This document shows, piece by piece, positions 26,619 to 57,978 of a stretch of 64,000 nt of DNA. Location of the stretch: NCBI GenBank assembly GCA_026707285.1, contig JAPOXD010000021.1, forward strand, positions 2,559 to 66,558, given 5' to 3'. The stretch comes from Chloroflexota bacterium (GTDB lineage Bacteria > Chloroflexota > UBA11872). Position 1 is the stretch's first letter. Every line of letters starts with the position of its first letter. A program made the translations under genes and the position numbers. The notes under the pieces were generated by a model, which did no database searches, had not been told where the DNA came from, and saw only the letters and a program-made list of their open reading frames with translations.

Positions 26619-28154
26619 TCACCAGGGGTTGGTGGCGTCCATCTCCCACTTGACGAGGTTCGTGACCCGGACGGGCCGATCCTCGGTGAAGAGCTTGAAT
26701 TGCTTGCTGTCGTCCCTGGTTGGGTAGACCCGCTGGACGATGCAGATCCGCGAATTGACGAACATCTCGATGACGGAGCGGTCGACGAACAGGTCGATGT
26801 CGAGTCGGCCGCCGCCCTCCAGGGTGAAGGGCACGACTTGCCGGCGGACGCCCCTGGAGTACCGCCCGGCGTCATAGCCGTAGGTCAAGCCCTGGTCTTC
26901 GCTGGCCCGCTCGAAGTCGACCACGAACTGCTGCCGCTCGGCGTCGTAGGTCACCACCGTTTCCTCCCGGCCTCCAGGCGAGCACAGCACCTTGAGCCCG
27001 AACCGAGCGGCGTCGTTGGCCTCGATGGTCAGCTCGATCTCCATACAGTCCGACGCGAAGCCCTGGACCGTCCGTTCCTCGCCCTCAGACAGGGTGACGT
27101 CGACATGCCGCCGCTCGTCGCAGCGCAAGGCGCGAAGCTCGGTGACCGGATCGATGCGGAGGCTGTTGTCGGCCGCAGGCGTGAAATGCCAGGGCAGGGT
27201 CATGACGCCGGCCCACCCATGTTTCTCCCATTGGTGCTCCCGCGCGTCCCTGATCCAGCCCCAGAAAATCCTCCGGCCCCGGTCGTCCACCAGCGTCTCG
27301 GGTCCGGCGACCAGGCTGCCCAGATGGCTCAGTTGCCCGTGGATCTCGGGGATGAACTGCTCGTGCGCGTAGCGCCCGATGTAGTACTGGGCCTTGTTGT
27401 AGGGCCAGTGGGTATGCATCAGCAGCATGTGCTTGTCGCCGAACGGAAAGAAGTTGGAGCAGGCGCAGTCCTCGACTTCCGCCGTCCACCGTCGATCGGA
27501 CTTGTAGAAGGGACCGACGTACTCCCACTGCTTGAGGTCCTTGGACTTGAAGAGGCTTGTTGAGTCTCCCTCGTAGCCGGGGCGGTGGTTCTTGTTTCCG
27601 ACGAGGGCGAAGTAGAAATCGCCCTCTTTCCAGCCGCTGGGATCGAAGATCACGCACTCCGCGAATTTGCTGGAGGACTTGGGCGGTGCGCCCTCCCGGG
27701 GCGGGTCCAGGGGTATGACGGGGTTCTCGGCCAGTGGGACCCAGTGATCCAAGTTGTCGTCGTGGCACTGGTAGATGCAGATGCCCCGCGTGGGCATGTT
27801 GGTGATGATGGCGGGCGGGTCCGTGCCCTCCATCACATCGCCGCTGTTGAAGTAGTCGCCCTTGGCGCCCGCCAGGGGCTCACGCAGCGAGGCTTTGTGG
27901 AAGCGCCAGTGGAGCAGGTCTCGGCTGCTGATGTGCTGCCAGCTCGAGAAGTAGATCTGGCCCGGCCCATTGGCGATCTTCTGCAGGTAGCCGAGGTGAT
28001 ATCGGCCCTTCCAGTAGATGGCGCCGTTGATGTCGTTCCAGCGGCCTTCCGGCGGGACGAAGTGGTACCTGGGCCGGAATTTGTCCGCGACCAGCTTCTC
28101 CCGCAGCTCGTAGGACTCCATCAGGTAGTCGTCGAAGTCGCTCATCAGGTACAC
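26619..28154 (-). CDS. glycoside hydrolase family 32-like (beta-fructofuranosidase/levanase-type five-bladed propeller plus beta-sandwich)
   Basis: N-terminal YHFVPPEGRWNDINGAIYWKGRYHLGYL resembles the GH32 YHF.P..WMNDPNG catalytic block; WIRDARE ~ RDP region; no signal peptide. Confidence 0.6.
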   Translation of the reverse strand: MYLMSDFDDYLMESYELREKLVADKFRPRYHFVPPEGRWNDINGAIYWKGRYHLGYLQKIANGPGQIYFSSWQHISSRDLLHWRFHKASLREPLAGAKGDYFNSGDVMEGTDPPAIITNMPTRGICIYQCHDDNLDHWVPLAENPVIPLDPPREGAPPKSSSKFAECVIFDPSGWKEGDFYFALVGNKNHRPGYEGDSTSLFKSKDLKQWEYVGPFYKSDRRWTAEVEDCACSNFFPFGDKHMLLMHTHWPYNKAQYYIGRYAHEQFIPEIHGQLSHLGSLVAGPETLVDDRGRRIFWGWIRDAREHQWEKHGWAGVMTLPWHFTPAADNSLRIDPVTELRALRCDERRHVDVTLSEGEERTVQGFASDCMEIELTIEANDAARFGLKVLCSPGGREETVVTYDAERQQFVVDFERASEDQGLTYGYDAGRYSRGVRRQVVPFTLEGGGRLDIDLFVDRSVIEMFVNSRICIVQRVYPTRDDSKQFKLFTEDRPVRVTNLVKWEMDATNPW

Positions 28155-31449: not shown

Positions 31450-33048
31450 CTACGACGGGCCAGGCTGGTCGGCAGACTCCATCCGATAGCTGACGAGCAT
31501 CTCGACACTGGCGAGCGCCAGTTGGCAATCGACCATGGGGTTGCGCCCGATCAACTTCACGCGCAGCCGGTTCCAGCCCTGTCGCGCAAGGGGCGGGGAC
31601 ACGTCGAAGTCGAGCCAGGTGTCGTTGTAGAGCTGGCGCGCGCGGGCCTGGGACGTGTCGAGGCTGTGGCCGTTGAGGTCGAATTGAAGCTCGTCGGGCG
31701 CCGTGAGCTGCTCGATGAGCAGGCGCAAGGTGACCGACTCGAGCGCCCCGTCCTTCGCGGCTGCGTCGAGATCGTCCGCGACGTCGACCGAAACCTCCAC
31801 CTCGTCTCCGGGCTTCTCGAGCGTCGCCGGCAGTGGCCCCTCGCCCCATTCCCGCTGATCCACCAGGTAGTGCTTGTCCTTGCGCGCGATGAGGTCCGGG
31901 TCGGCCATCTCCTTCCAGGGCTGGCGGTCGTAGTCAAGATCGCGGGTGAAGGGGATGAGGTGGTTGTTGAAGAGGTAGATGCCATCGGCGCCGGCCCGCC
32001 AGTGGGCTGCGGCCACGGCTCGGCACATTTCCGTGGAGTAGTAGTTGCGCTCGTTCCACAGCATCGCCGCCGAAAACGATCGGTTCTGGCCGAACAACCC
32101 GAGGTTTTGCGCGATGACCTGCACGCCGGTACCCCGCGCGGCCTCGACATACCCCTCAACGGGAAGCCGGTGCCTGTTGCCCATGGCTTGGCCGACGACG
32201 AGGATATCGAGCAAGCCTTCGGCCAGCCACGCGCGCACGTCGATTCCCGCGGTCATGGCCTGGTCCAGCGAGCCTGGGATCCGGGCGGAGAAATAGACGG
32301 GTCGTCCGACCTGCCGGCGCTTGGCGTCGAGGGCGGCCTTGAGTTCGCGCATCAAATCGGTGAGCAGTACCGCGCCGGCCTGCTCCTCGCCGTCGCGGAA
32401 CAGCCTGGGGTAGCGGCAGAAATCCCAGTCAAGGCCGTCCAGGTCGTAGTTGGCGATGGCCTCCCGGGCCAGGGCCAGCTTGTAGTCCCGCACCTCCGGC
32501 ACGGCGAAGTCGTAGGCCGTCTTGGCCCGCTGTTGAACCCCGGCGTAGGGCCGATCGACCGCGCGCTCGGGAGCATCCTGCCCGAGAAGCCAGTCGGGAT
32601 GGGCGCGTTTCATGGGCGACATCAGCGGATCGTCCAGCCCACCGGGGAGCCTGAGGTCGTGCACGTCGTTGACGCGCATCGAGAGGAACACTTCCAGCCC
32701 GGCTCGGTGACCGTGCTCGATGACGACCGCGGCGGGATCCGCCCCCGCCTCGGTCATTTGCCGGGCGTTCTCGTAGATGCGCCAGTTGGAGGCGGTCGTG
32801 AACGGCGACCCGTCCTGTCCCCAGCGCGGACCCACCGCGGTGTCATGGCTGTAGTGGTCGGACAGGCGATGGGTCGGCGTGCCGAGGTAGGGATCGGTGC
32901 CAAGCTGCCAATAGATGGTGTCGACCTGGGTGCCGCGGAGGGGGTCGATCGCGAGCCGGGCCAGCCCTTCGGCGCCAATCGGCGCCTCCATGGTCGGAGC
33001 GACCAGCGTTCCACCGTCGTTACAAAGGATCAGTCGGTGCGGCTTCAT
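31450..33048 (-). CDS. uncharacterised TIM-barrel glycoside-hydrolase-like protein (distant paralog of 16023 and 17976) with C-terminal beta-rich extension
   Basis: shared blocks DTIYWQLGTDPY (cf. RMYWEAGEGD), EHGHRAGLEVFLSMRVNDVHD (cf. EHCHDAGLEIHASYRVAGF); start at MKPHRLILCNDGG (33048); the ORF upstream to 33678 is probably untranslated. Confidence 0.45.
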   Translation of the reverse strand: MKPHRLILCNDGGTLVAPTMEAPIGAEGLARLAIDPLRGTQVDTIYWQLGTDPYLGTPTHRLSDHYSHDTAVGPRWGQDGSPFTTASNWRIYENARQMTEAGADPAAVVIEHGHRAGLEVFLSMRVNDVHDLRLPGGLDDPLMSPMKRAHPDWLLGQDAPERAVDRPYAGVQQRAKTAYDFAVPEVRDYKLALAREAIANYDLDGLDWDFCRYPRLFRDGEEQAGAVLLTDLMRELKAALDAKRRQVGRPVYFSARIPGSLDQAMTAGIDVRAWLAEGLLDILVVGQAMGNRHRLPVEGYVEAARGTGVQVIAQNLGLFGQNRSFSAAMLWNERNYYSTEMCRAVAAAHWRAGADGIYLFNNHLIPFTRDLDYDRQPWKEMADPDLIARKDKHYLVDQREWGEGPLPATLEKPGDEVEVSVDVADDLDAAAKDGALESVTLRLLIEQLTAPDELQFDLNGHSLDTSQARARQLYNDTWLDFDVSPPLARQGWNRLRVKLIGRNPMVDCQLALASVEMLVSYRMESADQPGPS

Positions 33049-33231
33049 CCCGCCATGCGCTCCGTTTCCGCACGAGCGAAACCCGACGGTCCCGCGCCCA
33101 TAGGGTAAGGGCCGAAACGGAGATTCCGCATCGGGCCTCATTGGGCGGCCACGACCTACTTGCGGCCAGGCTCCCAGACCTCGACTACGCTGCGGACCGT
33201 CTCTCCGCACGCGAACGGCCGGTGAGAGCCC

Positions 33232-33873
33232 ATGAAGTTCGATGTCGTCCAGCACCTCGGTGCGATGGAGCGCTCGGTGTCTTTGCTGGATCGCGATGGA
33301 CTGCCCGCCAGCGCGGTCAGGCTGGCCCGCAGTTACGAGACGACGCTGGAGGACCTGTGGGACGCCACGACGAACGTCGACCGCATTCCGCGTTGGTTCG
33401 CTCCGGTGAGCGGAGAGCTCCGGCTTGGCGGACGCTATCAGGTGGCAGGCAACGCCGGAGGCGAGATCACGGCGTGCGAACGACATTCGCACTACGCGCT
33501 CACGTGGGTGTTTGGCGAGTGGGTGAGCTGGGTGGACGTGCGCGTGGCGGATGAAGGGTCGGGCCGCGCGCGGCTCGCGCTCACGCACACGGCGCATCTG
33601 TCGGAACACTGGGACACTTACGGGCCGGGAGCGGCGGGCGTCGGTTGGGAAATGGGTTTCCTGGGGCTCGCGCTGCATCTCGCGGAGCCCGACTGGCTGA
33701 AGCCCGACGAGATGGAGTTCGCCGCCTCGGCGGATGGCAAGGCGTTCATCGCCGGCAGTAGCGAGGGCTGGCGACGAGCGTCGGTGGCGGCCGGTACGGA
33801 CCCCGAAGCCGCGGCTGCGGCAGCGCGGCAGACGACCGCGTTCTACTCCGGGGAGGAGCCCGAGCCCATGTGA
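33232..33873 (+). CDS. SRPBCC-superfamily protein (AHSA1/START-like)
   Basis: ..SYETTLEDLWDATTNVDRIPRWFAPVSGELRLGGRYQ..GEITACE.HSHYALTW.. pattern of activator-of-Hsp90-ATPase-homolog / polyketide-cyclase-like proteins. Confidence 0.65.
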   Translation: MKFDVVQHLGAMERSVSLLDRDGLPASAVRLARSYETTLEDLWDATTNVDRIPRWFAPVSGELRLGGRYQVAGNAGGEITACERHSHYALTWVFGEWVSWVDVRVADEGSGRARLALTHTAHLSEHWDTYGPGAAGVGWEMGFLGLALHLAEPDWLKPDEMEFAASADGKAFIAGSSEGWRRASVAAGTDPEAAAAAARQTTAFYSGEEPEPM

Positions 33874-34550: not shown

Positions 34551-35627
34551 TTGGCGACCCGACGTAGGCGGATCGAGAACGCTCCCTTGCCCTCCCCATT
34601 TCCCGAGGGCTGGTATTTCATCGCCAGCCGGGCGGACCTAGTCAAGTCCAGACTCATCCAGCGGACGTGGATGGGCGAGAACATTGTCGCCTGGTGTGAC
34701 GCCGACGGGCGCGTCTGCGTCGCCGAGGCCTTTTGCCCGCACCTGGGAGCCGACCTGGGGCCCGAAGCCGGAGGCCGGATCTGCGACGGCCGGCTCGTGT
34801 GTCCGTTCCACGGCTATGAGTTCGACGCCGGCGGCCAGTGCGTCGCCACACCCTATGCCGATCCACCCAAGACCGCGAAACTGCGGGTCTTCGAGACGCA
34901 GGAAGTGATCGGCCTGGTCTTCGCCTGGTGGGGGATCGAGGGACGGGCGCCGCAATGGAGTCTGCCGCCGTACCCGCGGGAGGAGCCCGGCTGGACCAAT
35001 TTCAAGATCAGGACCCTGCGCTTCGCCGGCCACCCCCAGGAGACGACGGAGAACTCCGTGGACCTGGGCCACCTGCGGTACGTCCACGGCTATGACAACG
35101 TCGACCGGGTCGAGCGGTTGTCGGTCGACGGGCCCTGTCTGAAGAGCGACTTCGACTTCAAGCGGGTTCGGACGATTGCCAAGGTCGCCAAGCTGACGTT
35201 CGACATCACCGCCAAAACTCGGATCTTCGGGCTGGGGTATTCGTACGTGAAGATTCGCGAGCACTCCATCGGGATGGATTTACGGTTTTGGGTGCTGTCG
35301 ACGCCGGTCGACGGCACGCTGATCGACATGTCGTTGGTCTCGCAGATGCGGGAGATACGCAGACCGAAGCGCCGGATTGCCGGTCTGGGGTTTCTCCCGG
35401 TGAAGCTTCGCGCGCCCCTGATGAACAGATTCATCGCGGCCATGCAAAACCGGGATGTCTTGCAGGACGTGGTCATCTGGGAGCGCAAGCAGCATCGCTC
35501 CCTGCCCCGCCTGTGTCGTTCGGACGGTGAGATCATGCCGTTTCGAACGTACTGTGCGCAGTTCTATTCCGACTCGCCTGAGGTTACGACTTCACTCCCC
35601 AAGCAATCCGGCGAAACCCTACAATGA
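34551..35627 (+). CDS. Rieske [2Fe-2S] non-heme-iron oxygenase, KshA/SdmA/Neverland-like architecture
   Basis: Rieske motif CPHLGADL..(17 aa)..CPFHGYEF; mononuclear iron motif DLGHLRYVHGYD (D-x2-H-x4-H); ~358 aa single-subunit type. Confidence 0.8.
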   Translation: MATRRRRIENAPLPSPFPEGWYFIASRADLVKSRLIQRTWMGENIVAWCDADGRVCVAEAFCPHLGADLGPEAGGRICDGRLVCPFHGYEFDAGGQCVATPYADPPKTAKLRVFETQEVIGLVFAWWGIEGRAPQWSLPPYPREEPGWTNFKIRTLRFAGHPQETTENSVDLGHLRYVHGYDNVDRVERLSVDGPCLKSDFDFKRVRTIAKVAKLTFDITAKTRIFGLGYSYVKIREHSIGMDLRFWVLSTPVDGTLIDMSLVSQMREIRRPKRRIAGLGFLPVKLRAPLMNRFIAAMQNRDVLQDVVIWERKQHRSLPRLCRSDGEIMPFRTYCAQFYSDSPEVTTSLPKQSGETLQ

Positions 35628-35715
35628 CCGGCCAAATTGGCCCTGACTCCCAGGTACCGAATCGGGACGCCATGCGCAACGCTTCCCGAACCAAATCGAG
35701 ATTGAAGGGCAGGCA

Positions 35716-38208
35716 ATGAATCAGGTACTCGGCAAGCTGAGCTCGCTGGTCACGGCCCGCCCGTGGATCACGCTCCTCGTCCTTCTTCTCGTCACCCTCG
35801 CGCTGGGAGCCGGAGCGGTCGTCCGCGCGCCGCCTCCGACGACCGCCGAGACGCTCCCCGACAACAGTCCCATTTCCGACGCGATGGCCGAGATCAATGA
35901 GCTCTTCGGGGACCACGGCGAGATCAGCGCCGTCACCCTCATTTTCCGCGGAGACGCGCTCACGCCCACCGGGCTCGCCCAGATGGATGCACTGATCAAC
36001 GACATCGTCGGCGACGCGGGGGTGCAGGAGCTCCTGGCTCCGACCAATCCGGTCTTTGCGCCGTCGGGGCTGATCAAGTTCGCGCTCCAGACCGACAGCT
36101 TCGATGCGGTGACACAGGCCCAAATCGATGCCGTCCGCGTACTCCCGGAGATTCAACCGGCCCTGGCGGCAATGACCGGCACCGACACCGACGGCACGCG
36201 GGTCGCGATCGGCAGTATCAGCTTGCTCGACACCGGCGACGAGCGCCTGAAGACCGCCGAGCGAACGATCAATGCACTGTCTAAATCTTCTGAGGGTCCG
36301 CTAAGCGCAAGCAGCGTGTCGTTCATCATCCTCGAGGACGAGTACACAGAGGCCACGGAGACGGGAATGGGTCCCCTCATCGGCGTGGCGTTCATTCTGA
36401 TCGCGTTGCTGCTGGTGCTTTTCATGCGCACGGTGTCCGACATGTTGCTGACGCTGGGCGGACTACTCGTGTCGATCATCTGGATCATTGGCGCCGAAGG
36501 CTGGCTCGGTCCGAATGCGCTGGGGCTCATCGGCCCGCCGAACTCGCTGACCACCATGGTGCCGATCATCGTGATCGGCCTCACGGTGGACTACGCCATT
36601 CAGACCATCTCGCACTACCGCGAGCAACGTCTCGAGGGCGGCGAGGTGCGCGAGGCCATTCGCACGGGACTGCGCATTGTGTCCGTCCCGCTGATGCTGG
36701 CGGCCATCACGACGATCGTCGGAATGTTGGCCAGCCTGTTTTCCCCGATCGGTATCGTGCGTGACTTCGGCGTCGTCGCGGGCCTGGGCATCGCGATGAG
36801 CCTGATCGTCATGCTGACGCTTGTCCCGGCCAGCCGGACGATCATGGACCGGCGACGCGAGAAGAAGGGTACGTTGAAGCCGCCGCGTCCAATCGTGCAC
36901 GCCTTGCCGGGCATCGAGCGACTGGCCGGCCTGCTGGGCCGCAGCGTGACCCGCCGGCCGGCGTACTACATCATCGCCGTGGCCGCGGTCACGATCGGGC
37001 TCGGAATCGCGTCAACCGGGCTGAAGTCTGAATTCAACATCCGCGATGTGCTGCCCCGGGGCGGGGCCGTGCTGGCGGATTTGGACACCCTGGAAGCGGC
37101 CATCGGCGGCACGGCCGAGGTGACCAATGTGCTCATCAAGGCCGAGGCCACCGAGACACGCACCCTGCTGAACATGCAGGACCTGACGACCGCCTTCGCG
37201 GACGAGACCCGGCGCCCGCCGGCGGCCGCAGGGCCGATTCAGACCTCGTTTGAATTGCTGCTGCGCGACTGGACGACCGACAGCGGCGTGCCGGGCGACA
37301 AGTACGACCCCGAGATCGCCGCTCTCTTCCAGGAGGCCTCGGCGGGCCTGCAGCTCGATCCTGAGCTGATGCAGGAAATCCTCGACCGGCTCGAGGCCAT
37401 GGACCCGGCCGTTGGTCGCCTGCTGGTCAACGATCCGCAGGGCGTCGACTCCCTGCTGGTTCAATTTCAGAGCTACGGGGGCGACCCCAACCTGACGACG
37501 GCGCTGCAGCAGGACCTCGAGGACCTGTGGGCCGGCGACGACGAGGACATCACCGCAACATCGGAAAGCATCATCTCGATCACAGTCACGGACTCGATTA
37601 CCGAGCGACAAACCGAGGCGATCGCCACGACGGTCGCGGCGGCCCTCACGGTGCTGGCCGTCTTCTTCTACTTGACGGTGCGGCAGCCGGCGCTGGCGGT
37701 TGTCGCCGTCGGGCCCATCGTGCTCGTGCTGATCTGTGTGCTGGGCACGATGGCGCTGCTGGGAATCCCCTACTCGCTCATCACGTCGATCATCACCGCG
37801 CTATCGATCGGAATCGGCGTGGACTACACCATTCACGTGATCCACCGCTATCGGGAGGAATTCGCGCGTCTGCGCAACCCGGAGGAAGCGGCGGTGCGCA
37901 CGCTGGCGACCACGGGATCGGCGCTGCTGGGATCGGCGATGACCACGGCGCTCGGCCTGGGCGTCCTGGCGGCTTCGCCGCTCCTTGCTTCCCAGCAGTT
38001 CGGTATCACCGCGGCGATCACGATCGCCTACTCGCTCATCGTCAGCATCGTGCTGGTGCCGCCGGCCATGACGGTGTGGGGCGCCTATCAAAACATGCGG
38101 CTGCGCTCGATGGTCGAGCGCGAGTGGGCCGACCTGGACGTGGCTATCGAAGAGGTGTATCGGCGCCACGAGGACGACGAACAGGCTTCGCCGACGACAG
38201 ATTCATGA
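35716..38208 (+). CDS. MMPL/RND-superfamily lipid transporter (HpnN/BstA-like architecture)
   Basis: two blocks of ~6 TM helices each followed by large periplasmic loops; 830 aa; MMPL-type conserved membrane blocks. Confidence 0.8.
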   Translation: MNQVLGKLSSLVTARPWITLLVLLLVTLALGAGAVVRAPPPTTAETLPDNSPISDAMAEINELFGDHGEISAVTLIFRGDALTPTGLAQMDALINDIVGDAGVQELLAPTNPVFAPSGLIKFALQTDSFDAVTQAQIDAVRVLPEIQPALAAMTGTDTDGTRVAIGSISLLDTGDERLKTAERTINALSKSSEGPLSASSVSFIILEDEYTEATETGMGPLIGVAFILIALLLVLFMRTVSDMLLTLGGLLVSIIWIIGAEGWLGPNALGLIGPPNSLTTMVPIIVIGLTVDYAIQTISHYREQRLEGGEVREAIRTGLRIVSVPLMLAAITTIVGMLASLFSPIGIVRDFGVVAGLGIAMSLIVMLTLVPASRTIMDRRREKKGTLKPPRPIVHALPGIERLAGLLGRSVTRRPAYYIIAVAAVTIGLGIASTGLKSEFNIRDVLPRGGAVLADLDTLEAAIGGTAEVTNVLIKAEATETRTLLNMQDLTTAFADETRRPPAAAGPIQTSFELLLRDWTTDSGVPGDKYDPEIAALFQEASAGLQLDPELMQEILDRLEAMDPAVGRLLVNDPQGVDSLLVQFQSYGGDPNLTTALQQDLEDLWAGDDEDITATSESIISITVTDSITERQTEAIATTVAAALTVLAVFFYLTVRQPALAVVAVGPIVLVLICVLGTMALLGIPYSLITSIITALSIGIGVDYTIHVIHRYREEFARLRNPEEAAVRTLATTGSALLGSAMTTALGLGVLAASPLLASQQFGITAAITIAYSLIVSIVLVPPAMTVWGAYQNMRLRSMVEREWADLDVAIEEVYRRHEDDEQASPTTDS

Positions 38209-38226
38209 CAGGCCGGGCGCGCTCGC

Positions 38227-39327
38227 GTGTCCCCAGTCGCCGAGCCGCTGCTTGAACCAGGCGTGCAACTCCCGCTAGCCAAGGAGCTTGGACAGCTCCG
38301 CGACCTCTCCAGGGGGCTGAAAGGCGCGTACCGCGGGGGAGACGCCAACCGTCGGGTGCGGCACTTCAGCGGATGGCTGCGCCGAGCAACGGCGGATGAC
38401 GACGGCGCGAGCGGCTACGACCACGCCAAAACCGTGAAGGAGTACTACGACCTCTGCGGCGAGTTCATGGTGTTCGGCTGGGGCGAATCGCTCCACTTCG
38501 CGCCGCTGGCGCCTCACGAAAGCCTGCAGGACTCCAAGACCAGGCATCAGCGGTTGATGATCGCCAAGCTGGAGCTGCGCGAGGGCATGACGGTGATCGA
38601 CGTGGGCTGCGGCATCGGCGGCCCGCTGCGTCGGGTCATCCGCGAGGCCGGCGTGAGCGTCCTCGGGGTCAACAGCAACGAGATCCAGTTGGAGAAGGCC
38701 AAGTCGCTCGACGCCGACGCGGGGCTCGACCACATGGCCGACTACCTCGCGTGCAGCTTCATGGACATGGAGGCGATCGCGGACGACACGTTCGACCGGG
38801 GCTACGCCATTGAGTCGACGTGCCACGCCCCGGACAAGGCCGGCGCGTTCGCCGAAATTTGCCGCGTGCTAAAGCCCGGCGCGCTCTTCTGGGGACAGGA
38901 AATGTGCCTGACGGACGCGTTCGATCCTTACGACAAGCGACACCGGCACATCGAACAGGAGCTGAAGTACTCCATCGCGCTCAAGGACATCGCGACGATG
39001 GGCCAGGTCAACCGCGACCTCGAATCGGCGGGATTTCAGGTCATCGAGGGCCGGGATTTGGCGGTCGCGGGGAACGGTCCGACCACTCCGTGGTACCAGC
39101 CCATGGTGAATCGGCGCCAAACGCTCGGCAACGCCCTGCACCGGACGCCCATCGGCCGCAAGGCGTTCATGGGGGCGTCGAGGCTGGTCGAGGCGGTGGG
39201 AGTCTTTCCGAAGGGCGCCACCGACGTCGTCGCCCTGATGCATCGCACCGCCAACGCCTATGTCGCCGGCGGCAGGGCCGGGATTTTCACGCCGCTGTAC
39301 TGTTTTCTGGCGCGCAAACCCGGGTAG
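38227..39327 (+). CDS. sterol C-24 methyltransferase (ERG6/SMT family) homolog
   Basis: YYDLCGEFMVFGWGESLHFAP (cf. ERG6 YYNLVTDFYEYGWGSSFHF), SAM motif VIDVGCGIGGP, AIESTCHAPDKAGAFAEICRVLKPGALF (cf. [28 protein letters not shown]), C-terminal IFTPLYCFLARKPG (cf. LFTPMMLFVARKPE); GTG start. Confidence 0.8.
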   Translation: MSPVAEPLLEPGVQLPLAKELGQLRDLSRGLKGAYRGGDANRRVRHFSGWLRRATADDDGASGYDHAKTVKEYYDLCGEFMVFGWGESLHFAPLAPHESLQDSKTRHQRLMIAKLELREGMTVIDVGCGIGGPLRRVIREAGVSVLGVNSNEIQLEKAKSLDADAGLDHMADYLACSFMDMEAIADDTFDRGYAIESTCHAPDKAGAFAEICRVLKPGALFWGQEMCLTDAFDPYDKRHRHIEQELKYSIALKDIATMGQVNRDLESAGFQVIEGRDLAVAGNGPTTPWYQPMVNRRQTLGNALHRTPIGRKAFMGASRLVEAVGVFPKGATDVVALMHRTANAYVAGGRAGIFTPLYCFLARKPG

Positions 39328-39360
39328 GCTCGCCGCGTCACTCGGGCGAGGCTCGGCGCC

Positions 39361-41385
39361 TTAAGCGGTCAGTTCGCGTCGCTGCTTGGCAATGCGGAAC
39401 TTCAGCTTCTTGCTCGGTTTGCTCGACGGCAGCGGGCTAAACCCGAGCTCGAAGTTCGGCGGCGACACCTCGATATCGAAGTGGCGCGCGATCATCAGCA
39501 CGTTGGCCGCCAGTTGCAGTTCCACCCACCCCGTCCCGAGGCACCGGTGCGTGCCCAGCCCATACGGGGCGTAACCAGGACCGCGATGCTCATTGCGCGG
39601 CGGCTGGTAGCGGTCGATGTCAAATTTGAAGGGTTCGGGAAACACGCTTTCCGTGTAGTGCGTGGCCGTCTGGGCAATGTGAAGCCGGGACCCGACGGGC
39701 AGCTCGTAGCCTTCGACCACGCACGAATTCATCACGTTCCGAATGGACATCGGGACGATCGGGTAGACCCGCAGGCACTCCATGAGAAAGCGATGGGTGA
39801 CGTCGATCTCTCGTGGCCTGAATGCCTCTCCACTTGGGTCGCCGTTGGCGAACAACGCATCGGCTTCGTCGCGGATCTTCGCGTAGATCTCCGGCTTCGA
39901 CGCCATGGCATACAACACGAAGCTGAACATGTCGCCAAGGTAGACGCTCGCGATCAGCGCGGCTGACAGCGCGAAGGGCAGATTCGACTCCGGGACGAAC
40001 TGCGGATCGGTCGCGTGCAGGCCGAGAAGGTCGTCCGCAAGATCGCGCGGACATCCAGCCCGCTGCGCGGGCGTGTGGCCAATCCGCACCCGGTTCAGCA
40101 GTGTGTCCAAAGACCTCATCCGGCGTTTCATGCCTGGGGTCCGCAGCATGAACTTGGGCAGCACCTTTGCGACGTGAACGCTGAGCGCCCGTTCCTTGAA
40201 CCGCGCCAAATCCGCAAAGACATCCTGGGAATCAACGCTGATAAGGAGCGGCGAAAGCTGCGCGTTGATCATTCGCCGGCACATCTCCGTTGCCTGGTAA
40301 GTTTCCCCAACCTCCCAGTCCGCCATATAGCCCCGTGCATGCCGGTACACCTGGTCTAGCTGTCCCGCGAGCCTGCCGCGGGAATACCCCGGGCCCAACG
40401 ACTTGCGAAGCCGAAAGTGATCGGCGCCATCCAGGGACGGCAATACGCCCGAGGCGCCATAGACCTTCTCGAAGTCCGCAAAATAGTCCCTCGTCCGCAG
40501 GTACCTGCGCCCGCTCCGATGGACCCAGCGGTTCACCTCGAGGCCGCCAACGAAGATCATTGGTTCCACAAGAGGCGGACGGATCATGAACACCGGCCCG
40601 TACTCTTCGGTGAGCTGCGCGAATAGGGCGGGAAAGTTCCCGTTGCGAACGTGCCGATTCAGCAGCAGCCGCCACAGCGGGACGGTCGGAATCTTCTTGG
40701 ACAGGGCGGAATGCTGGAGCAGCGGTGCGGCAAGGCTCTGTGACACGGCATCGGCGATCGACCGGCCGATCAAGTCCATATTGCAGATGAAGTGAATGCG
40801 CTCCTCATCCTGTTCTTCAAGCTGGAAGATGAAGCGAAACACATCACAGGTATTGACCAGGCAGATGATGATCACGTCTCGCGGATCGGGAATTTCGTTG
40901 TTGAAGATCGCCTTGCCGATGCGGGTCTTCACAAACTGCGCCGCGGATCGCTCTGGGGAGCTTTCGAACATATCCCCCTGCCGCGCGGCCCGGGCAAGCG
41001 TCCAGAACCCGCCCTCGTGATGATCCAGAATCCCCATGTCAACCAAGCGATCCAGCGTGAGATCGATGATCGATTCGGCGCGGGGCGCCAGCCGTTCGAT
41101 CCAATACTGGGCGTTATGCCGGCCCGGCTCGCTCGCAATCTCCTCGAGGATGGGGTCCAGCGTCGGGTCGCCCGTTTCCGCCGCATCGACGAGAAACAGC
41201 GACTCGATATCCGTGTCGATGCGCGACATGAGCGAGAGCTCGGCGAGCGCCGCGCCGACGACGGCGCAGTTCAGACGCCATCCTGGAACCTGGTGAAAGT
41301 AGCCGCTCTCCTCATTGAGGAGCATCAGGAGAAGCTCTTCGGAAAGGCTTAACTGACGGGTCGACGTACTGTCTGCGACGGCCAT
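39361..41385 (-). CDS. fusion protein: N-terminal GOLPH3/GPP34-family domain plus C-terminal cytochrome P450
   Basis: N-terminus LSLSEELLLMLLNEESGYF...GAALAELSLMSRID matches the GPP34 signature; C-terminus carries EXXR and the heme-thiolate loop FDIDRYQPP...YAPYGLGTHRCLGTGWV; ATG at 41385 with aagga RBS, although the ORF opens with TTG at 41451. Confidence 0.7.
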   Translation of the reverse strand: MAVADSTSTRQLSLSEELLLMLLNEESGYFHQVPGWRLNCAVVGAALAELSLMSRIDTDIESLFLVDAAETGDPTLDPILEEIASEPGRHNAQYWIERLAPRAESIIDLTLDRLVDMGILDHHEGGFWTLARAARQGDMFESSPERSAAQFVKTRIGKAIFNNEIPDPRDVIIICLVNTCDVFRFIFQLEEQDEERIHFICNMDLIGRSIADAVSQSLAAPLLQHSALSKKIPTVPLWRLLLNRHVRNGNFPALFAQLTEEYGPVFMIRPPLVEPMIFVGGLEVNRWVHRSGRRYLRTRDYFADFEKVYGASGVLPSLDGADHFRLRKSLGPGYSRGRLAGQLDQVYRHARGYMADWEVGETYQATEMCRRMINAQLSPLLISVDSQDVFADLARFKERALSVHVAKVLPKFMLRTPGMKRRMRSLDTLLNRVRIGHTPAQRAGCPRDLADDLLGLHATDPQFVPESNLPFALSAALIASVYLGDMFSFVLYAMASKPEIYAKIRDEADALFANGDPSGEAFRPREIDVTHRFLMECLRVYPIVPMSIRNVMNSCVVEGYELPVGSRLHIAQTATHYTESVFPEPFKFDIDRYQPPRNEHRGPGYAPYGLGTHRCLGTGWVELQLAANVLMIARHFDIEVSPPNFELGFSPLPSSKPSKKLKFRIAKQRRELTA

Positions 41386-41593
41386 CCGACTTAGTCCTTG
41401 TGCTTGCCCTAAGCTCGCAAGGGCCTGTCGTCCCTGTATCGCATTATACAACCGCGACTGCCCAGCGGCAACGAGATATCAAAAGACGAATCAACGATAA
41501 AGCAGGATTAGTATTTCGACATATCTTCGGGAGTCACTTCAACAAAACTCATACACTCAAGCGACTCATATTCAGTCGACCGACGTTCGAGTA

Positions 41594-42961
41594 TTAGCCT
41601 TTTGCCTTCTTGAACCGCCAACCGTGCATGATGCTGCCGTAATGGTTGAATGACCGCCTTGCCCTGGCGTCGTCAAATGGATAGACGGCCCCGATCTGCG
41701 TTGCCGCGGCGAGACCACTCACAAAGCAAGTTTCCTGACTATTGACCAGCGTGTGCGCGCCGCAGTGCCACGTCCGCCTTCTGCCCTGAATGAACTGGAA
41801 GAGGTTCACAAGCCAGGCCACGTGGCGCACGTCGTGCACGATGTGTTGGAACCACCATCTTCCAACGATCTTTTGACCATCGATCTCGCTGATTGGATTG
41901 TAGGTAACCAGACACGGTTTGTCTGACCGATTGGCCCATGGTTGCTGGTTGTGCATGATGTACGTAATTTCATAGTTGTCGGGTCGCGCGCCATACTGCT
42001 CAATATGGTTGCTCCGCGTCTCCAGCGGTTTCACGGCGTTGTCCGGAAGCACTGAAGAATCCGAATGAATCACCGTGTGATTGTGGAGCTCGCTCTCATA
42101 TCGAATCGAAGACAGGATATAGCGCTCGAGCAGCGTGGGTTTATCGAGAATCATCAAGGTCTGGTTCGCATTGCACGCGAATACCACCTCGTCGAACGCC
42201 TCCGTCACGCCGCCTTCGTCCTCAACGACGACGCCCGAGGACTGCCGGTACACCTTTCTGACCGGACGGTTGAGGTAGAGCTTGTCTCGAAAACCCGCTG
42301 ACAAGTTCTCGTAGATGCGGCGCGTCCCCTGGTCCCATGTCTGCATTGGGGTGGCGGTTTCGATATCGAAGAAGTCGAGGTACCTCGCGAAGAGCGCGGC
42401 GGGCATGTCGAACACGTTGGTCGCCATCAGGAAATTGACGAACATGGGCTTGAGAATTTTGTACCGAAAGTCGCCGGAGAATCCCCCCAGATTCAGCACC
42501 GTGCCCATGCTGATGTAGTTGAACGGGTTGAGCGCGTTGAGCAACTTCGACTGGGTACGGCTCAGCCAGCCAATCCAGTGCAGGCGTCGCAAGAGGCGCT
42601 GGAACTTTGCGATCTCGACGTGCAGCTGGTCTCTGATCTCGGAGTCAAAGTCGTGGGCGTAGATTTGGCCGCGGTACTTCACGCTGTAGCTGAACCTGGT
42701 ATCGACCAAGTCGATGCCGAACTGCTTCATCAGCAGGACGATGTGGTCGTACACCGACGGAATGCAGGCGGTTACGGAAATGTCGAACGGAATCGAGCTG
42801 CCGTCATCCTGCGGCATATCGGCGGTGATCGCGTTTCCGCCGATCCGGTCCCGCGCTTCGAACAGACGGAAATCGAAGCGGTCCGGGTGGTGATGCAGGC
42901 CCCATGCGGCAGCTAGCCCTGAGATCCCTCCGCCGATGATGGCTATCCGCCGCAGCGTCAT
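41594..42961 (-). CDS. FAD/NAD(P)-binding amine-oxidase-like oxidoreductase (COG2907 type, usually partnered with cyclopropane-fatty-acyl/SMT-type methyltransferases)
   Basis: Rossmann IAIIGGGISGLAAAW..FEARDRIGGN; ..IPFDISVTACIPSVYDHIVLLMKQFGIDLVDTRFSYSV.. block characteristic of COG2907 proteins; noticeably lower GC than flanks. Confidence 0.65.
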   Translation of the reverse strand: MTLRRIAIIGGGISGLAAAWGLHHHPDRFDFRLFEARDRIGGNAITADMPQDDGSSIPFDISVTACIPSVYDHIVLLMKQFGIDLVDTRFSYSVKYRGQIYAHDFDSEIRDQLHVEIAKFQRLLRRLHWIGWLSRTQSKLLNALNPFNYISMGTVLNLGGFSGDFRYKILKPMFVNFLMATNVFDMPAALFARYLDFFDIETATPMQTWDQGTRRIYENLSAGFRDKLYLNRPVRKVYRQSSGVVVEDEGGVTEAFDEVVFACNANQTLMILDKPTLLERYILSSIRYESELHNHTVIHSDSSVLPDNAVKPLETRSNHIEQYGARPDNYEITYIMHNQQPWANRSDKPCLVTYNPISEIDGQKIVGRWWFQHIVHDVRHVAWLVNLFQFIQGRRRTWHCGAHTLVNSQETCFVSGLAAATQIGAVYPFDDARARRSFNHYGSIMHGWRFKKAKG

Positions 42962-43026: not shown

Positions 43027-43070
43027 AACACGCCCGGAGGGATTCGAACCCCCGACCCCTGGTTCCGAAG
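43027..43070 (-). other. 44-nt duplicate of the 3' part of tRNA-Arg (anticodon loop to acceptor stem, no CCA): att-like remnant
   Basis: 43029..43070 identical to 44540..44581 of the intact tRNA-Arg; immediately followed by a 30-nt element (43071..43100) that recurs at 44474..44503. Confidence 0.7.
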
Positions 43071-43326
43071 GCCCGATCCGGCCATCTGATGAGGCTCGAT
43101 TGGACCCGATGTGAATCGGTCCAAACCTGTTAGCGAAGATCGTTCGCCCGATGGCGTGGGACCTCGTCCGGTCAAAGTCAATCCAAAACTAGCGCAAAGC
43201 CCGGGGGATCTCCGCCGGCTTGCTTCCAGGAGATCAGCGCTCTTCGAGAGCCTCAGCACTGGTCTGCAGTCGCCACCGCAGCGCTGGGGAATTGGCGCGG
43301 GCAGGGGGAATCTCAGACTTCCCCGG

Positions 43327-44274
43327 CTAGCGGTCGGGCCGCATCACGCGCAGGGCCTGGGGCACGACCGTGATCGTGACCGGCGGGTGTGCAACGAACT
43401 CACCGTCGGCCCAGACTCCGACCTTCCGGTTTGCCGCCAGCTGCACCTGCCGGATCCGGTGATACGCCACCGCGGGATGCCCCACATGCGATCCGGCGAG
43501 AGCGCGGGGCAGCATCCGAAGGATCTCCCACTTGGGCATGCGCCGGACCAGGCAGAGATCCAGGCGACCGTCGTCAGGACGCGCGTCCGGCGCGACCCGG
43601 ATCCGCCCGCCATAGCGGCTCGTGTTGCCCACGGCCGCCAGGAGGAGTTGCCCGCGGAAGGCGCCGAAGTCGCCCCGCACCGTGGCGTCGGGCCACGCGT
43701 AGGTGCGAAGCGTGACGGCTGCGCCGTAGAGGTACGCGCCCGACGCGCCCAGGATGGCTGGGGCCCGCCCATCCGCCACGAACTCCGCGACCTCACTGTC
43801 GAACCCGAACGTCGCGACCGTGATGAAATACGCGCTCCCGCGTTCCTGGCTCACCGGATCGCTGCCGACCACATGGCCCAGGTCCAGCGTCTGGGTCCGG
43901 TGGTGCAGGAGGCCCGTGATCGCCGCGTCGGGCCCTGCCGGCAGGCCCAGCGCGTGGGCCAGATCGTTACAGCGACCGGCGGGCAGGATGCCCAACTCGA
44001 GCTCCTGCCGGGACGACGCGGGCGCCGCCATGATGCCGTTCACGACCTCGTGCACGGTCCCGTCGCCGCCAGACGCCACAATCCGCGTCGAGCCCGCCTC
44101 GACGGCTTCCCGGGCCAGCCTCGCGGCCGCTCCCGGAGCGTCAGTGGCGCGCACGTCGGCCTCCGTGCCCTGTGCGTCCAGCCTGGACGACAGACTAGTC
44201 GCCCGCGCCAGGGCACGGCCGCGCCCAGCGCGTCCGTTCGCAATGATCGTCCACCGATCCTGCGAGCGATGCAT
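43327..44274 (-). CDS. diacylglycerol/lipid kinase catalytic-domain protein (YegS/DagK family)
   Basis: ..WTIIANGRAGRGRA..; ..RIVASGGDGTVHEVVNGI.. (GGDGT motif) and C-terminal pattern of DAGK_cat family. Confidence 0.8.
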   Translation of the reverse strand: MHRSQDRWTIIANGRAGRGRALARATSLSSRLDAQGTEADVRATDAPGAAARLAREAVEAGSTRIVASGGDGTVHEVVNGIMAAPASSRQELELGILPAGRCNDLAHALGLPAGPDAAITGLLHHRTQTLDLGHVVGSDPVSQERGSAYFITVATFGFDSEVAEFVADGRAPAILGASGAYLYGAAVTLRTYAWPDATVRGDFGAFRGQLLLAAVGNTSRYGGRIRVAPDARPDDGRLDLCLVRRMPKWEILRMLPRALAGSHVGHPAVAYHRIRQVQLAANRKVGVWADGEFVAHPPVTITVVPQALRVMRPDR

Positions 44275-44536
44275 CGTCTAGCGCCGCCGATCGTTCCGCC
44301 GCATGGCGACCCCGCCGACCCAGCGCCGGCTCGGCGCTCGCGTTCGTGACATCTGGATGGTGTCGCCCCTTGGTCCGTCCTGGCGCGCAATCTTTCCCCG
44401 GGCGCACGATCGTCGCAACCCGCCGATCGGCCTTACAACGATGGGGCCAAGTGGGAGAGTGACGCCTCAGAAGGCCCGATGCGGCCATCTGATGAGGCTC
44501 GATCACCGGATGGTCGCGCAACAAGTTTGGGACAAA

Positions 44537-44613
44537 TGGCACGCCCGGAGGGATTCGAACCCCCGACCCCTGGTTCCGAAGACCAGTGCTCTAATCCGCT
44601 GAGCTACGGGCGC
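44537..44613 (-). tRNA. tRNA-Arg (anticodon UCG)
   Basis: reverse complement GCGCCCGTAGCTCAGCGGATTAGAGCACTGGTCTTCGGAACCAGGGGTCGGGGGTTCGAATCCCTCCGGGCGTGCCA; cloverleaf, CCA encoded. Confidence 0.85.
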
Positions 44614-55902: not shown

Positions 55903-56037
55903 AGTGATGTCGTTTGTAGGCGCCAGAATCCATTCCGACGACCTTACGCGTATGCTTCTAAGGCGTGCACACATTGCGCTCGCTAGGCTGGGCCGCTCGC
56001 GTGTGCTACATTCCCGTACCACAGATACGGTCAGGAA

Positions 56038-56718
56038 ATGTTGCACATGCCAAGCGGACTCGAAGCACCCCGAGAATCCTCGGGGTGCATTGTGTTGACC
56101 GGCGTCGACGCCATCGCCGCGCTGGCGAAGTTGGGGCTCGACCATCCGGATGACGCTGATCGAATTCGGTCCTTCGTCAGGGTTGCAGTGCGCACGGCTC
56201 GGGAAAAGCAAGTTGGCTACGCCTCAAACTATGCGGGCATCGTCGCGCACAACGAAGTCCTCCACGGACTTTGCAGCATCCTACGCGACCGAGGTTGGAA
56301 TGAGCTTGAACGCAAGAATCACCTATTGATTGCCCATCCCGATTCGGGGGTTACTTTCGGCGTATCGTCGGCCGATCAAGACACCGGGATTCGCCAAGGG
56401 GACCCATGTACCCGGTACCCGAAAGGTCAAATGACCAGGCGGGTGGTGATCGCCAACCATCTTCGGTTTGATCAAACCACGCCGACATTTCCCAAGCCGG
56501 CACTGCTTCGGCGTAACACCTATCTGCTGCTGTTTTACGATGACATCGACCGGAAGCAGATTCGCTTAGAGATTTCACGACCGCTTTTCATGGGTTCCAC
56601 CAATCGCCTAGCCGGCTGGGATCGCCGGAACATTCTTCCTCCAATCGACCTGTCGGGTGCGCCTGCGATCAAACAGCCAGGACCCGTCAGCTTCGACGTG
56701 AGAGTGAGACGCAATTAG
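56038..56718 (+). CDS. hypothetical protein (islet cargo, no recognisable family)
   Basis: 226-aa ORF; lower GC than the genome average; lies between two tRNA-Ala copies. Confidence 0.4.
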   Translation: MLHMPSGLEAPRESSGCIVLTGVDAIAALAKLGLDHPDDADRIRSFVRVAVRTAREKQVGYASNYAGIVAHNEVLHGLCSILRDRGWNELERKNHLLIAHPDSGVTFGVSSADQDTGIRQGDPCTRYPKGQMTRRVVIANHLRFDQTTPTFPKPALLRRNTYLLLFYDDIDRKQIRLEISRPLFMGSTNRLAGWDRRNILPPIDLSGAPAIKQPGPVSFDVRVRRN

Positions 56719-56977
56719 CGAATATACAGCTTCGCGGCTTAGCCCGACACGGCTGGAGGTCGCCCGCAAGCGGCGTGGCCTGACTAGCAAGGCCCTCGCA
56801 GAAGCTGTCAGTCTCTCGGCATGGAGTCTAAGGGCCTATCAGCGTGGTGAGCGTACGCCTACTGCCGACACGGTCCGGCGCCTAAGTGAAGCTGTTGATT
56901 TCCCGGAGGCCTTCCTGACGGCTCCTGAGATTGACAAACTCGCACCAAGGTCCATTAGTTTCCGCTCGCTGCATCGC

Positions 56978-57832
56978 ATGTCACAGCGCGTGCGCGACAA
57001 GGCAGTCGCGACCGCGACAATCGCCATTCAGTTGGCCACCTGGGTTGACGGGGAGTTTGTCTTACCGAAGCCCAAGATACCTGACTGGCAGTCTGTACCA
57101 CCGGAGGAAGCTGCGTTGGGGCTTCGCCAGAATTGGGACGTGGGGATGGACCCGTTGCCCAATATGGTCCACTTGTTGGAGTCACGTGGCGTAAGGGTGT
57201 TCTCGTTGGTCGAGGAGTGTCGAGACCTCGATGGCCTGTCGCTTTGGCACGATTCGACACCTTACGTATTTCTCAATACGACTAAACCAGCAGCCAGAAG
57301 TCGATTTTCTGCGGCCCACGAGCTTGGACACCTATTGCTCCATCGGGCCTTCGGTCCTTCCGGTCATCGGACGACCGAGGCGGAAGCTAACCGGTTTGCT
57401 TCCGCATTCCTAATGCCGCGAGACAACATCATTGATAGTGTGCCCAAGGACAGCACGTTGAAAGAACTTGAGCATCACGCACGCACGTGGAACGTTTCGG
57501 TTCAGGCTCTCATCTATCGTATGCACGAAATCGGCATGACGACCCGGTGGCGCTACCGGTCATTGTTTATCGGCTACAACCGACGCCCGTTAGACGACTC
57601 AGGGCCAGGCGAGACGTCCAAGGTTTATCGGCAGGTGTTTGACCTGTTGCGCGCACAGGGTCGAGACCGATCCGATGTGGCCGACGCCATTCACCTGCAC
57701 CTCGAAGATCTTCATGCGCTAGTGTTCGGCCTCGTCCCAACCATCCTTCCAGACGATCCAAGTCCCAGCCAGGTGCCCTATGACTCCATTCCGGAGACGG
57801 TGACCGGTACAGGTCCCCAACTTGTGCCCTAA
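56978..57832 (+). CDS. ImmA/IrrE-family (DUF955) zinc metallopeptidase domain; the open frame continues upstream into an XRE-type HTH domain (from ~56740) that has no canonical start codon
   Basis: HEXXH motif AAHELGHLLLH and typical ImmA/IrrE context; upstream in-frame translation ..LEVARKRRGLTSKALAEAVSLSAWSLRAYQRGERTPTADTVRRLSEAVDFPEAF.. is a classic XRE HTH. Confidence 0.65.
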   Translation: MSQRVRDKAVATATIAIQLATWVDGEFVLPKPKIPDWQSVPPEEAALGLRQNWDVGMDPLPNMVHLLESRGVRVFSLVEECRDLDGLSLWHDSTPYVFLNTTKPAARSRFSAAHELGHLLLHRAFGPSGHRTTEAEANRFASAFLMPRDNIIDSVPKDSTLKELEHHARTWNVSVQALIYRMHEIGMTTRWRYRSLFIGYNRRPLDDSGPGETSKVYRQVFDLLRAQGRDRSDVADAIHLHLEDLHALVFGLVPTILPDDPSPSQVPYDSIPETVTGTGPQLVP

Positions 57833-57906
57833 CCACTCTAGGCTGCTGGTTGAGGACGGTTGAGGCATCTACGGCGCTGTCGGAGATTTGTTCGGAGGGG
57901 CCAGGC

Positions 57907-57978
57907 GGCCGATAGCTCAGTCGGAAGAGCGCCGCACTCGCATTGCGTAGGTCGTGGGTTCGAGTCCCATTCGGTCCA
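57907..57978 (+). pseudogene. second, slightly degenerate copy of tRNA-Ala(CGC): probable att-site duplicate
   Basis: identical to 55831..55902 except G->T in the anticodon stem (C27:U43 mismatch) and an altered 5' end (GGCGGCCGA vs GGGCCGA) that disrupts acceptor pairing. Confidence 0.6.

Follow-up and report, generated by a model that had tools for sequence, protein, structure and literature searches.

This study revealed that a gene encoding a GPP34 (GOLPH3/Vps74-like) domain joined to a cytochrome P450 in a Chloroflexota bacterium is a real single fused gene, and that it very probably forms part of a five-gene cassette. The gene lies in a stretch of 64,000 nucleotides from contig JAPOXD010000021.1 of assembly GCA_026707285.1 (hereafter, the window). 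Besides the GPP34-P450 fusion, the cassette (34551-42961) encodes a KshA-like Rieske oxygenase, a resistance-nodulation-division (RND) transporter, a sterol methyltransferase (SMT) and a flavin adenine dinucleotide (FAD)-dependent oxidoreductase. The initial annotation of the window knew of no characterisation of the domain pair. This still applies to its biochemistry, but the architecture has already been described bioinformatically as GPP34_L, which combines GPP34 and P450 domains in 656 proteins from metagenome-assembled genomes (MAGs) of sponge symbionts of many phyla (Ferreira et al. 2025, Microbiome 13:4, PMC11706023). The window protein is a member of GPP34_L, and its domain architecture is not new. 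What is new here is the cassette context and the link to sterol tailoring; no connection of GPP34-P450s with SMT, Rieske or sulfotransferase clusters was found in the searchable literature.

We lean towards the view that the fusion is a cytoplasmic sterol-tailoring P450 carried in a mobile cassette, in which the GPP34 domain serves as an adaptor in the place of a membrane anchor. As judged from the sequences, the substrate is likely to be a sterol-class lipid. The proposed function shifts to that of a sterol-tailoring oxidase because the cassette is conserved, two of its other enzymes carry Sterol_MT_C and KshA_C domains, a CYP51 is the closest solved P450 by sequence, the cassette is joined to a sterol cluster in Nitrospirales, and a sister subfamily occurs beside sulfotransferase genes. 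Such an oxidase is more likely than a secreted host-manipulation factor.

The cassette and its distribution

The neighbourhood survey retained 80 loci from relatives encoded in 364 species-representative genomes. These loci represent at least eight phyla and belong to Chloroflexota/Dehalococcoidia, Nitrospirales, Latescibacterota, Longimicrobiales/Gemmatimonadota, Binatia, Opitutales, Thermodesulfobacteriota and Rhodothermaceae, and the identity of their GPP34-P450s ranges from 68 to 97%. As counted by tblastn within +/-10 kb of the GPP34-P450, the Rieske oxygenase recurred in 63 of the 80 loci, the SMT in 60, and the MMPL-type RND transporter and the FAD enzyme in 44 each. The outer flanking genes of the window recurred in at most five loci, and they are common only to the closest relatives. 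The neighbours were also clustered on called open reading frames (ORFs), which gave counts slightly below those of tblastn. On this basis, at least one of the SMT, Rieske and FAD enzymes was present in 72/80 loci and all three together in 32/80; an RND transporter of either type was likewise found in 72/80. The initial annotation had pointed to the SMT directly beside the fusion, and this adjacency proved to be conserved across phyla: the two genes are convergent in the window with a gap of 33 bp, and in 44/80 loci the SMT is at most 300 bp from the P450 (called ORFs). It is the most informative feature of the locus.

In the other phyla, identity to the window proteins amounts to 56-62% for the Rieske oxygenase, 63-69% for the SMT, 69-74% for the P450 and 79-87% for the FAD enzyme. 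The FAD enzyme is the most conserved cassette gene outside the closest relatives (74-87% vs 68-75% for the P450). We take these cross-phylum identities to be well above those expected from vertical descent, so the cassette appears to be horizontally shared. Instead of the MMPL pump, diderm phyla have AcrB (28 loci), HlyD (19) and OEP (12), which lie directly upstream of the P450. The transporter type tracks the envelope type: a tripartite AcrB, HlyD and OEP system is found in Latescibacterota, Gemmatimonadota, Binatia and Opitutales (L012-L080, ~3900-9970), and an MMPL-type RND transporter in Chloroflexota. Some Dehalococcoidia loci additionally contain a major facilitator superfamily (MFS) transporter and an LppX/LprAFG-type lipoprotein (~16800-19200), and an outer-membrane beta-barrel protein is added in the Nitrospirales loci.

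Steroid-specific signals were seen in two of the other cassette members, in the form of Sterol_MT_C and KshA_C domains. The closest solved protein to the Rieske oxygenase is the 3-ketosteroid 9alpha-hydroxylase KshA (7e-26). An assignment of this enzyme as SdmA was rejected, as it shares only ~20% identity with the SdmA-like Rieske protein encoded in the same Nitrospirales locus and carries a KshA_C rather than a VanA_C domain. The RND transporter matches MMPL (7.5e-48), Sterol-sensing (1.1e-13) and Patched (9e-12) in Pfam, as well as HAE3 (2e-65) and HpnN (5.6e-33) in NCBIfam, and has ~12 transmembrane (TM)-like segments. The SMT scores 57.6 bits against Sterol_MT_C (cut-off 21.7) and also scores as a CMAS/cyclopropane-fatty-acid-synthase-type methyltransferase. 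The closest solved proteins to the FAD enzyme are LkcE (2.3e-31) and the P. acnes fatty-acid isomerase 2b9w (1.7e-12).

A direct link with sterol metabolism is found in two Nitrospirales loci, L010 (12124-21618) and L078 (12150-21877), where the cassette is contiguous with genes for a canonical SMT, an SdmB-like dehydrogenase, an SdmA-like Rieske protein and ERG24. The gene order of L078 is that of IMG genes 2682229270-79, the sterol cluster of 'Nitrospira sp., coral reef', which goes on with ERG11 and SMO-OSC (Brown et al. 2023, PMC10070321). Brown et al. tested both SMTs of this contig; the one beside the GPP34-P450 in L078 is their 'coral reef 2 of 2', and it is 69% identical to the window SMT. 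Cassette and canonical SMTs are paralogues which share only 41-44% identity. The criteria for functional SMTs include the Region I motif GWGXXFHF and the Region II motif DXGXGXXGP, and all SMTs active on desmosterol or 24-methylenecholesterol share the former (Brown & Welander 2025). In the window SMT, Region II is intact (DVGCGIGGP) and Region I reads GWGESLHF, with F89 replaced by L. The same GWGESLHF is found in most cassette SMTs (L001-L080); the canonical SMTs of the same loci have GWGxxFHF. Since the 'coral reef 2 of 2' SMT has L where functional SMTs have F, we infer that it falls outside the active set. The cassette SMT may need a different, pre-modified substrate. The window resembles bacterial de novo sterol clusters (PMC10070321) in having an SMT with Sterol_MT_C, and in L010 and L078, the only loci with such a cluster, the cassette is continuous with it, but SMO-OSC, CYP51, ERG24 and SdmA/B are missing from the window and its SMT is only a paralogue.

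Steroid-related genes also surround a sister GPP34-P450 subfamily, which is 35-38% identical to the window protein. It was searched with P0134, a 38%-identical fusion with a canonical AGxDT I-helix, and six places were examined. In five of the six, a Sulfotransfer_1 gene (PF00685, cytosolic-type) adjoins the sister fusion, often 36 bp upstream; the loci of this sulfotransferase pairing survey include L083, L084, L086 and L087 (around 8858-14532). L082 (8287-21980) contains three GPP34-P450 paralogues interleaved with genes for 3Beta_HSD, Steroid_dh (5alpha-reductase family), an SMT and several Acyl_transf_3 proteins, and PhyH dioxygenase genes lie a few kb upstream of this group. Every one of the three P450 paralogues has its own GPP34 domain. 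From its gene content, L082 looks like a cluster for steroid hydroxylation, sulfation and acylation, and GPP34-P450s appear to be repeatedly embedded among steroid-decorating enzymes.

The GPP34-P450 family is large and old and has many subfamilies. At E<=1e-30, 410 representatives were found in a library clustered at 50% identity, of which ~48 are full-length fusions with 24-56% identity. Some loci contain a second GPP34-P450 paralogue in the same cluster (L048, 7812-9788; L062, 12846-14813; L013). Those of L013 and L048 are very divergent: they share ~49% identity with P0229, whose own identity to the window protein is 24%. L013 also has a DUF1295 reductase-like gene, and its features lie at 4987-7011 and 7434-8315. 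Inside the cassette, Binatia have a reductase-like DUF1295 gene together with a second, very divergent fusion.

The name series of the MAGs carrying relatives of the fusion (SB066x, RHO, COS and Plut) point to sponge and coral sources, the nearest relatives being Chloroflexota MAGs. We take the prefix Plut_ (isolates Plut_88884 and Plut_88904; loci L045 and L078) to stand for the coral Porites lutea. With two loci from Plut_ isolates, the exclusivity to sponges that Ferreira et al. claimed for GPP34_L needs widening. Coral symbionts are mentioned in the text of Ferreira et al. (PMC11706023).

The fused protein and its two domains

The ORF of the fusion gene starts at a TTG (39361..41451, minus strand), and an internal ATG at 41385 gives a protein of 674 aa, in full agreement with the coordinates of the initial annotation. 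We assign the start to this ATG, because homologues are 673-676 aa long, a separate gene caller applied to the source contig, k141_28310 of ENA ERZ27276916 (113,944 bp), also gave 674 aa, and the TTG falls inside the -10 box of a sigma-70-like promoter (41471-41443). The same observations ruled out the TTG at 41451. The promoter-like site, TTGCCG-17-TATAAT, is weak evidence alone, as the count of such sites equals the chance expectation. The initial annotation had called for a search for co-occurrence of PF05719 and PF00067 and had named a frameshift or an assembly join as the alternative to a single gene. More than 120 clusters at 70-91% identity to the 674-aa protein were found, each with both Pfam domains. 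The protein is identical on three contigs, and a scan with one genome per species located relatives in the 364 genomes. A frameshift or assembly chimera is thereby ruled out. The window contains no second GPP34 or P450 gene, and neither a signal peptide nor a TM segment was predicted in the fusion. The features of the gene, the cassette and its edge are given in Table 1.

Table 1 Features of the GPP34-P450 gene, its cassette and the cassette edge (window coordinates)
Feature	Position	Strand	Basis or remark
Rieske [2Fe-2S] oxygenase, KshA-type C-terminal domain, first cassette gene	34551..35627	+	Pfam Rieske 1.9e-16, KshA_C 3.6e-23
RND-superfamily transporter, MMPL/HAE3, HpnN-like, sterol-sensing-type domain	35716..38208	+	Pfam, NCBIfam
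SMT paralogue, Region I GWGESLHF	38227..39327	+	Pfam Sterol_MT_C 1.4e-15, Methyltransf_11
GPP34-cytochrome P450 fusion, 674 aa	39361..41385	-	ORF call, Pfam, homologues
Cytochrome P450 domain, aa 233-674	39364..40689	-	Pfam
Haem-binding loop Y-A-P-Y-G-L-G-T-H-R-C615-L-G-T	39532..39573	-	C615 invariant
EXXR, E536-C-L-R539	39769-39780	-	Motif alignment
I-helix motif A-S-V-Y-L-G-D-M-F-S, aa 479-488, without acid-alcohol pair	39922..39951	-	Motif alignment
Linker end and hinge S-K-K-I-P-T-V-P, aa 229-236	40678..40701	-	GPP34-to-P450 junction
GPP34 (GOLPH3/Vps74-like) domain, aa 14-215	40741..41346	-	Pfam
Sigma-70-like promoter TTGCCG-17-TATAAT, upstream of ATG 41385	41443..41471	-	10/12 match
FAD-dependent amine-oxidase-fold oxidoreductase (LkcE/PAI-like), last cassette gene	41594..42961	-	Pfam Amino_oxidase 5.9e-18
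Duplicated tRNA-Arg 3' fragment, att-like, cassette edge	43029..43100	.	Repeat match to tRNA-Arg(TCG)

The C-terminal part is a complete P450, as the initial annotation had stated. It matches PF00067 with E=4.3e-30 (105.3 bits vs a cut-off of 22.8), its EXXR and Cys loop are intact, and it has a net charge of +12 and a pI of 9.5. The I-helix, already noted as atypical, carries its own motif in place of A/G-G-x-D/E-T. Within the clade of the window protein A479, S480, Y482, G484 and D485 are invariant, and variable hydrophobic residues occupy the Thr position. AG(L/I)DT is retained by the other fusion subfamilies and by stand-alone relatives, so the acid-alcohol pair has been lost only in the window clade. 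Because this pair is absent, oxygen activation in the clade is probably non-canonical, being either substrate-assisted or peroxide-dependent, and the loss flags unusual P450 chemistry.

The closest solved P450 by sequence is the CYP51 of M. capsulatus (2.9e-20, ~21% identity); the I-helix of CYP51, LIATIFAGHHTS, aligns with LIASVYLGDMFS of the window protein. Membership in CYP51, for which at least 40% identity to the family and the B'-helix and I-helix signatures were taken as the test, was ruled out by the ~21% identity and the absence of both signatures. The window P450 belongs to a family separate from CYP51. The structure model is of moderate quality (predicted local distance difference test, pLDDT, 74; predicted template-modelling score, pTM, 0.68), and its fold matches are generic P450s: CYP184A1, CYP51 and BM3 match about equally well, with TM scores of 0.75-0.80 on the target. 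The CYP51-ferredoxin fusion of M. capsulatus (6mcw, 7snm; TM 0.80) shares with the window protein the nature of a natural fusion and is a bacterial sterol P450. In contrast, the AGQHTS-type I-helix signature of CYP51 is absent from the window P450, and the partner domain of the latter is N-terminal and not a redox protein.

The N-terminal part was confirmed as a GPP34 domain by its match to PF05719 (E=4.5e-30, 105.7 bits vs a cut-off of 29.1), which spans positions 1-199 of the 201 in the family profile. When 23 N-domains were combined into a profile, it matched GOLPH3 (3kn1) at 7.6e-12 and Vps74 at 3e-11. In GOLPH3, the phosphatidylinositol 4-phosphate (PtdIns(4)P or PI4P) site consists of W81, R90, R171 and R174, and R90L abolishes Golgi recruitment (PMC13408441). 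According to the sequence/profile alignment, R90 corresponds to V43 in the window protein, most members of the fusion family having A or V there; R171 corresponds to E104 and R174 to I107, with Arg kept at this last column in some other subfamilies; W36 sits two residues off the W81 column. Three of the four tetrad residues are therefore replaced in this alignment-based comparison. The 10-residue GOLPH3 insert bearing W161 is also absent. In the structure model, a beta-hairpin is predicted at aa 120-130, in the region equivalent to the membrane-inserting hairpin of GOLPH3 (190-201). At a net charge of -19 (family median -13) and a pI of 4.5, compared with +1 and 7.8 for the GOLPH3 core (residues 60-275), the domain is strongly acidic and not near-neutral or basic, unlike a domain suited to approaching an anionic membrane.

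The GPP34 module was seen in the initial annotation as a possible tether of the P450 to a specific membrane lipid or protein. As the replaced arginines, the missing W161 insert and the charge of -19 vs +1 argue against it, a PI4P-specific, membrane-electrostatic role is unlikely, and the phosphoinositide form of the proposal is not supported. The protein or adaptor form is plausible. The N-terminal GPP34 domain is followed by a flexible linker (low pLDDT at aa 219-228) and a K-K-I-P hinge, an arrangement that occupies the position of the anchor in class II P450s and favours an adaptor role; we give this predicted role about an even chance. In the hinge, P233 is invariant, and 90% or more of the sequences have I232. 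The A2 consensus reads K-K-I-P, and K-x-I turns up again throughout the diverse family. The resemblance to microsomal class II P450s extends from the N-terminal targeting module and the basic/proline hinge (K-K-I-P-x-V) to the long 'eukaryote-like' P450 fold class that follows, but the module is a soluble alpha-helical domain of 220 aa with no TM helix. With GOLPH3/Vps74, the window domain shares homology and, on the reading proposed here, the adaptor logic of placing enzymes at a membrane. Unlike them, it is bacterial, and its 'client' enzyme is part of the same polypeptide. The acidic groove of GOLPH3 binds the basic tails of client enzymes (PMC13408441).

Proposed function and alternatives

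In the model that we favour, a cytoplasmic haem-thiolate enzyme would oxidise a sterol or a triterpenoid lipid closely resembling one. We infer both this substrate class and the order of the steps. The symbiont would obtain the sterol from the host in Chloroflexota and by its own synthesis in Nitrospirales. The SMT and the FAD enzyme would alkylate and desaturate the sterol side chain, the P450 and the Rieske enzyme would oxygenate it, and the RND pump would move substrate or product through the envelope. The GPP34 domain would dock the P450 either to other enzymes of the pathway or to a partner embedded in the membrane, for example the transporter, in the way GOLPH3 does with its clients, and would not sense PI4P.

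Several observations weigh against this model. The cassette SMT departs from the motif of active SMTs, and its substrate may not be a common sterol. For the solved relatives of the FAD enzyme, the substrates are a polyketide amine and fatty acids. No oxidosqualene cyclase, CYP51, ERG24, SdmA/B or SMO-OSC gene was found in the 64-kb window, so a source of sterol must be assumed; in the Chloroflexota host it would be acquired, most plausibly from the sponge. The structure model is of only moderate confidence, and in it the P450 fold appears as near to fatty-acid P450s (CYP184A1, BM3) as to CYP51. A redox partner is not encoded within the five genes. Finally, the acidic GPP34 domain would not attach electrostatically to anionic bacterial membranes, and 'anchor' may be the wrong word for it.

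For the ~650 GPP34-P450s known from sponge symbionts, mimicry of host PI4P is the one function proposed in print, and the gene neighbourhoods offer another hypothesis. GPP34 proteins have been proposed to act as secreted effectors, binding host PI4P and holding up the maturation of the phagosome, and GPP34_L was reported to be absent from free-living relatives and expressed in situ (PMC11706023). In that study, flanking genes were analysed only for the short GPP34-only form, its text does not mention sterols or methyltransferases, and the PI4P-binding residues and P450 motifs lay outside its analysis. The window protein matches GPP34_L in architecture, length (~660-680 aa) and phyla, and probably also in coming from a host-associated MAG. 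Were it an effector acting on the phagosome, its P450 would be accessory. The strong enrichment of the family in sponge and coral symbionts, its in situ expression and the true homology of the domain to GOLPH3/Vps74 suit this explanation, and the missing signal peptide is not decisive since type III/IV effectors need no Sec signal. However, the residues, the charge and the neighbourhood seen here do not support it: R90, R171, R174 and the W161 insert have not been kept, the domain carries a net charge of -19, and the neighbouring genes encode efflux pumps and enzymes of the cytoplasm or membrane, not secretion systems. An electron-requiring haem enzyme would also be an odd cargo, and all three P450 paralogues of one steroid cluster (L082) have their own GPP34 domain. 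We consequently regard an effector role as very unlikely.

A catabolic or detoxifying cassette, which would attack host sterols or toxic sponge terpenoids, either as a carbon source or in self-protection, and expel the products through the RND transporter, also has points in its favour: the KshA-like Rieske enzyme is similar to a hydroxylase of steroid ring opening, efflux-type RND, AcrB/HlyD/OEP and MFS transporters accompany the cassette, and the window flanks are degradative and rich in glycoside hydrolases. It is nevertheless unlikely, given that a methyltransferase dependent on S-adenosylmethionine adds carbon and is a biosynthetic enzyme, that KstD, Hsa, beta-oxidation and meta-cleavage genes are not among the recurrent neighbours in the 80 loci, that the Nitrospirales cassette is joined to a biosynthetic sterol cluster, and that sister subfamilies pair with decorating enzymes (sulfotransferases and acyltransferases). 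The substrate could instead be another olefinic membrane lipid, such as an unsaturated fatty acyl chain, a hopanoid, a carotenoid or a polyprenoid. Bacterial furan fatty-acid synthesis follows a comparable logic of methylase, FAD desaturase and oxygenase. The CMAS-type score of the SMT and its missing F of GWGXXFHF, the fatty-acid isomerase among the relatives of the FAD enzyme, the fatty-acid P450s among the top fold matches, the HpnN-like (hopanoid-transporter-like) RND protein and the lack of sterol synthesis genes in the window all fit a non-sterol lipid. On the other hand, the Sterol_MT_C match is specific (57.6 vs 21.7), as is KshA_C, and in other phyla the cassette is linked with ERG24, SdmA/B, Steroid_dh, 3Beta_HSD and DUF1295 genes, which makes such a substrate improbable.

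The preferred reading of a sterol-tailoring oxidase can be extended, speculatively and with low probability, to a broader proposal: GPP34-P450 genes would mark horizontally exchanged clusters, the 'unconventional' steroids of sponge and coral hosts would be products of these clusters in the symbionts and not of the animal, and the GPP34 domain would organise a membrane-associated metabolon as a prokaryotic counterpart of GOLPH3 retention. The window clade, together with the atypical SMT, the Rieske enzyme and the FAD desaturase/isomerase, would then build unusual alkylated side chains and may supply the unassigned methylations behind sponge biomarker steranes. The sister clades, with 5alpha-reductase, 3beta-HSD, sulfotransferases and acyltransferases, would make polyhydroxylated sterol sulfates or esters, a chemistry of the halistanol type. 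If the sterol-tailoring reading is true, symbionts of many phyla share a mobile tool-kit for the alkylation, oxygenation, sulfation and export of sterols. This would bear on the dispute whether 24-isopropyl- and 26-methyl-steranes ('sponge' biomarkers) come from animals or bacteria, would provide candidate genes for bioactive sponge steroid sulfates, and would offer a bacterial system for an ancestral, PI4P-independent function of the GOLPH3 fold.

Surroundings of the cassette

The GC content at third codon positions (GC3) of the P450 and FAD genes is 0.77, as against 0.81-0.91 for most neighbours (genes at 26.6-50 kb). At 68 bp from the cassette end lies a fragment of a tRNA gene: a 45-nt copy at 43029-43073 is 98% identical to the 3' part of tRNA-Arg(TCG) (44537-44613, minus strand), and a second repeat of 37 nt near the tRNA-Arg pairs 43064-43100 with 44467-44503. 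This duplication looks like an att-like variable junction at the cassette edge. The tRNA-Arg copies bracket a DAGK/YegS-type lipid kinase gene (43327-44274), which, among the closest relatives, is present in L001 and L003 and absent from L002, L004 and L005.

The flanks of the window consist of glycoside hydrolases, BNR proteins and extracellular polysaccharide (EPS) genes. The upstream flank is rich in glycoside hydrolases, with GH42 (6440-8581), GH116 (11452-14070), GH32 (26619-28154) and GHL10 genes (16023-19775 and 31450-33678), and contains three BNR/sialidase-like genes (314-1540, 5120-6418 and 8703-10004). These glycoside-hydrolase and BNR flanks (314-33678) fit a symbiont that degrades host glycans. 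Further downstream, the GC content falls to 0.57-0.58 at 56000-60000, and GC3 is ~0.63-0.68 for the genes at 56038-59794, including SAICAR synthetase; this segment may be acquired or differently expressed. It is followed by a second Amino_oxidase gene (59859-61232).

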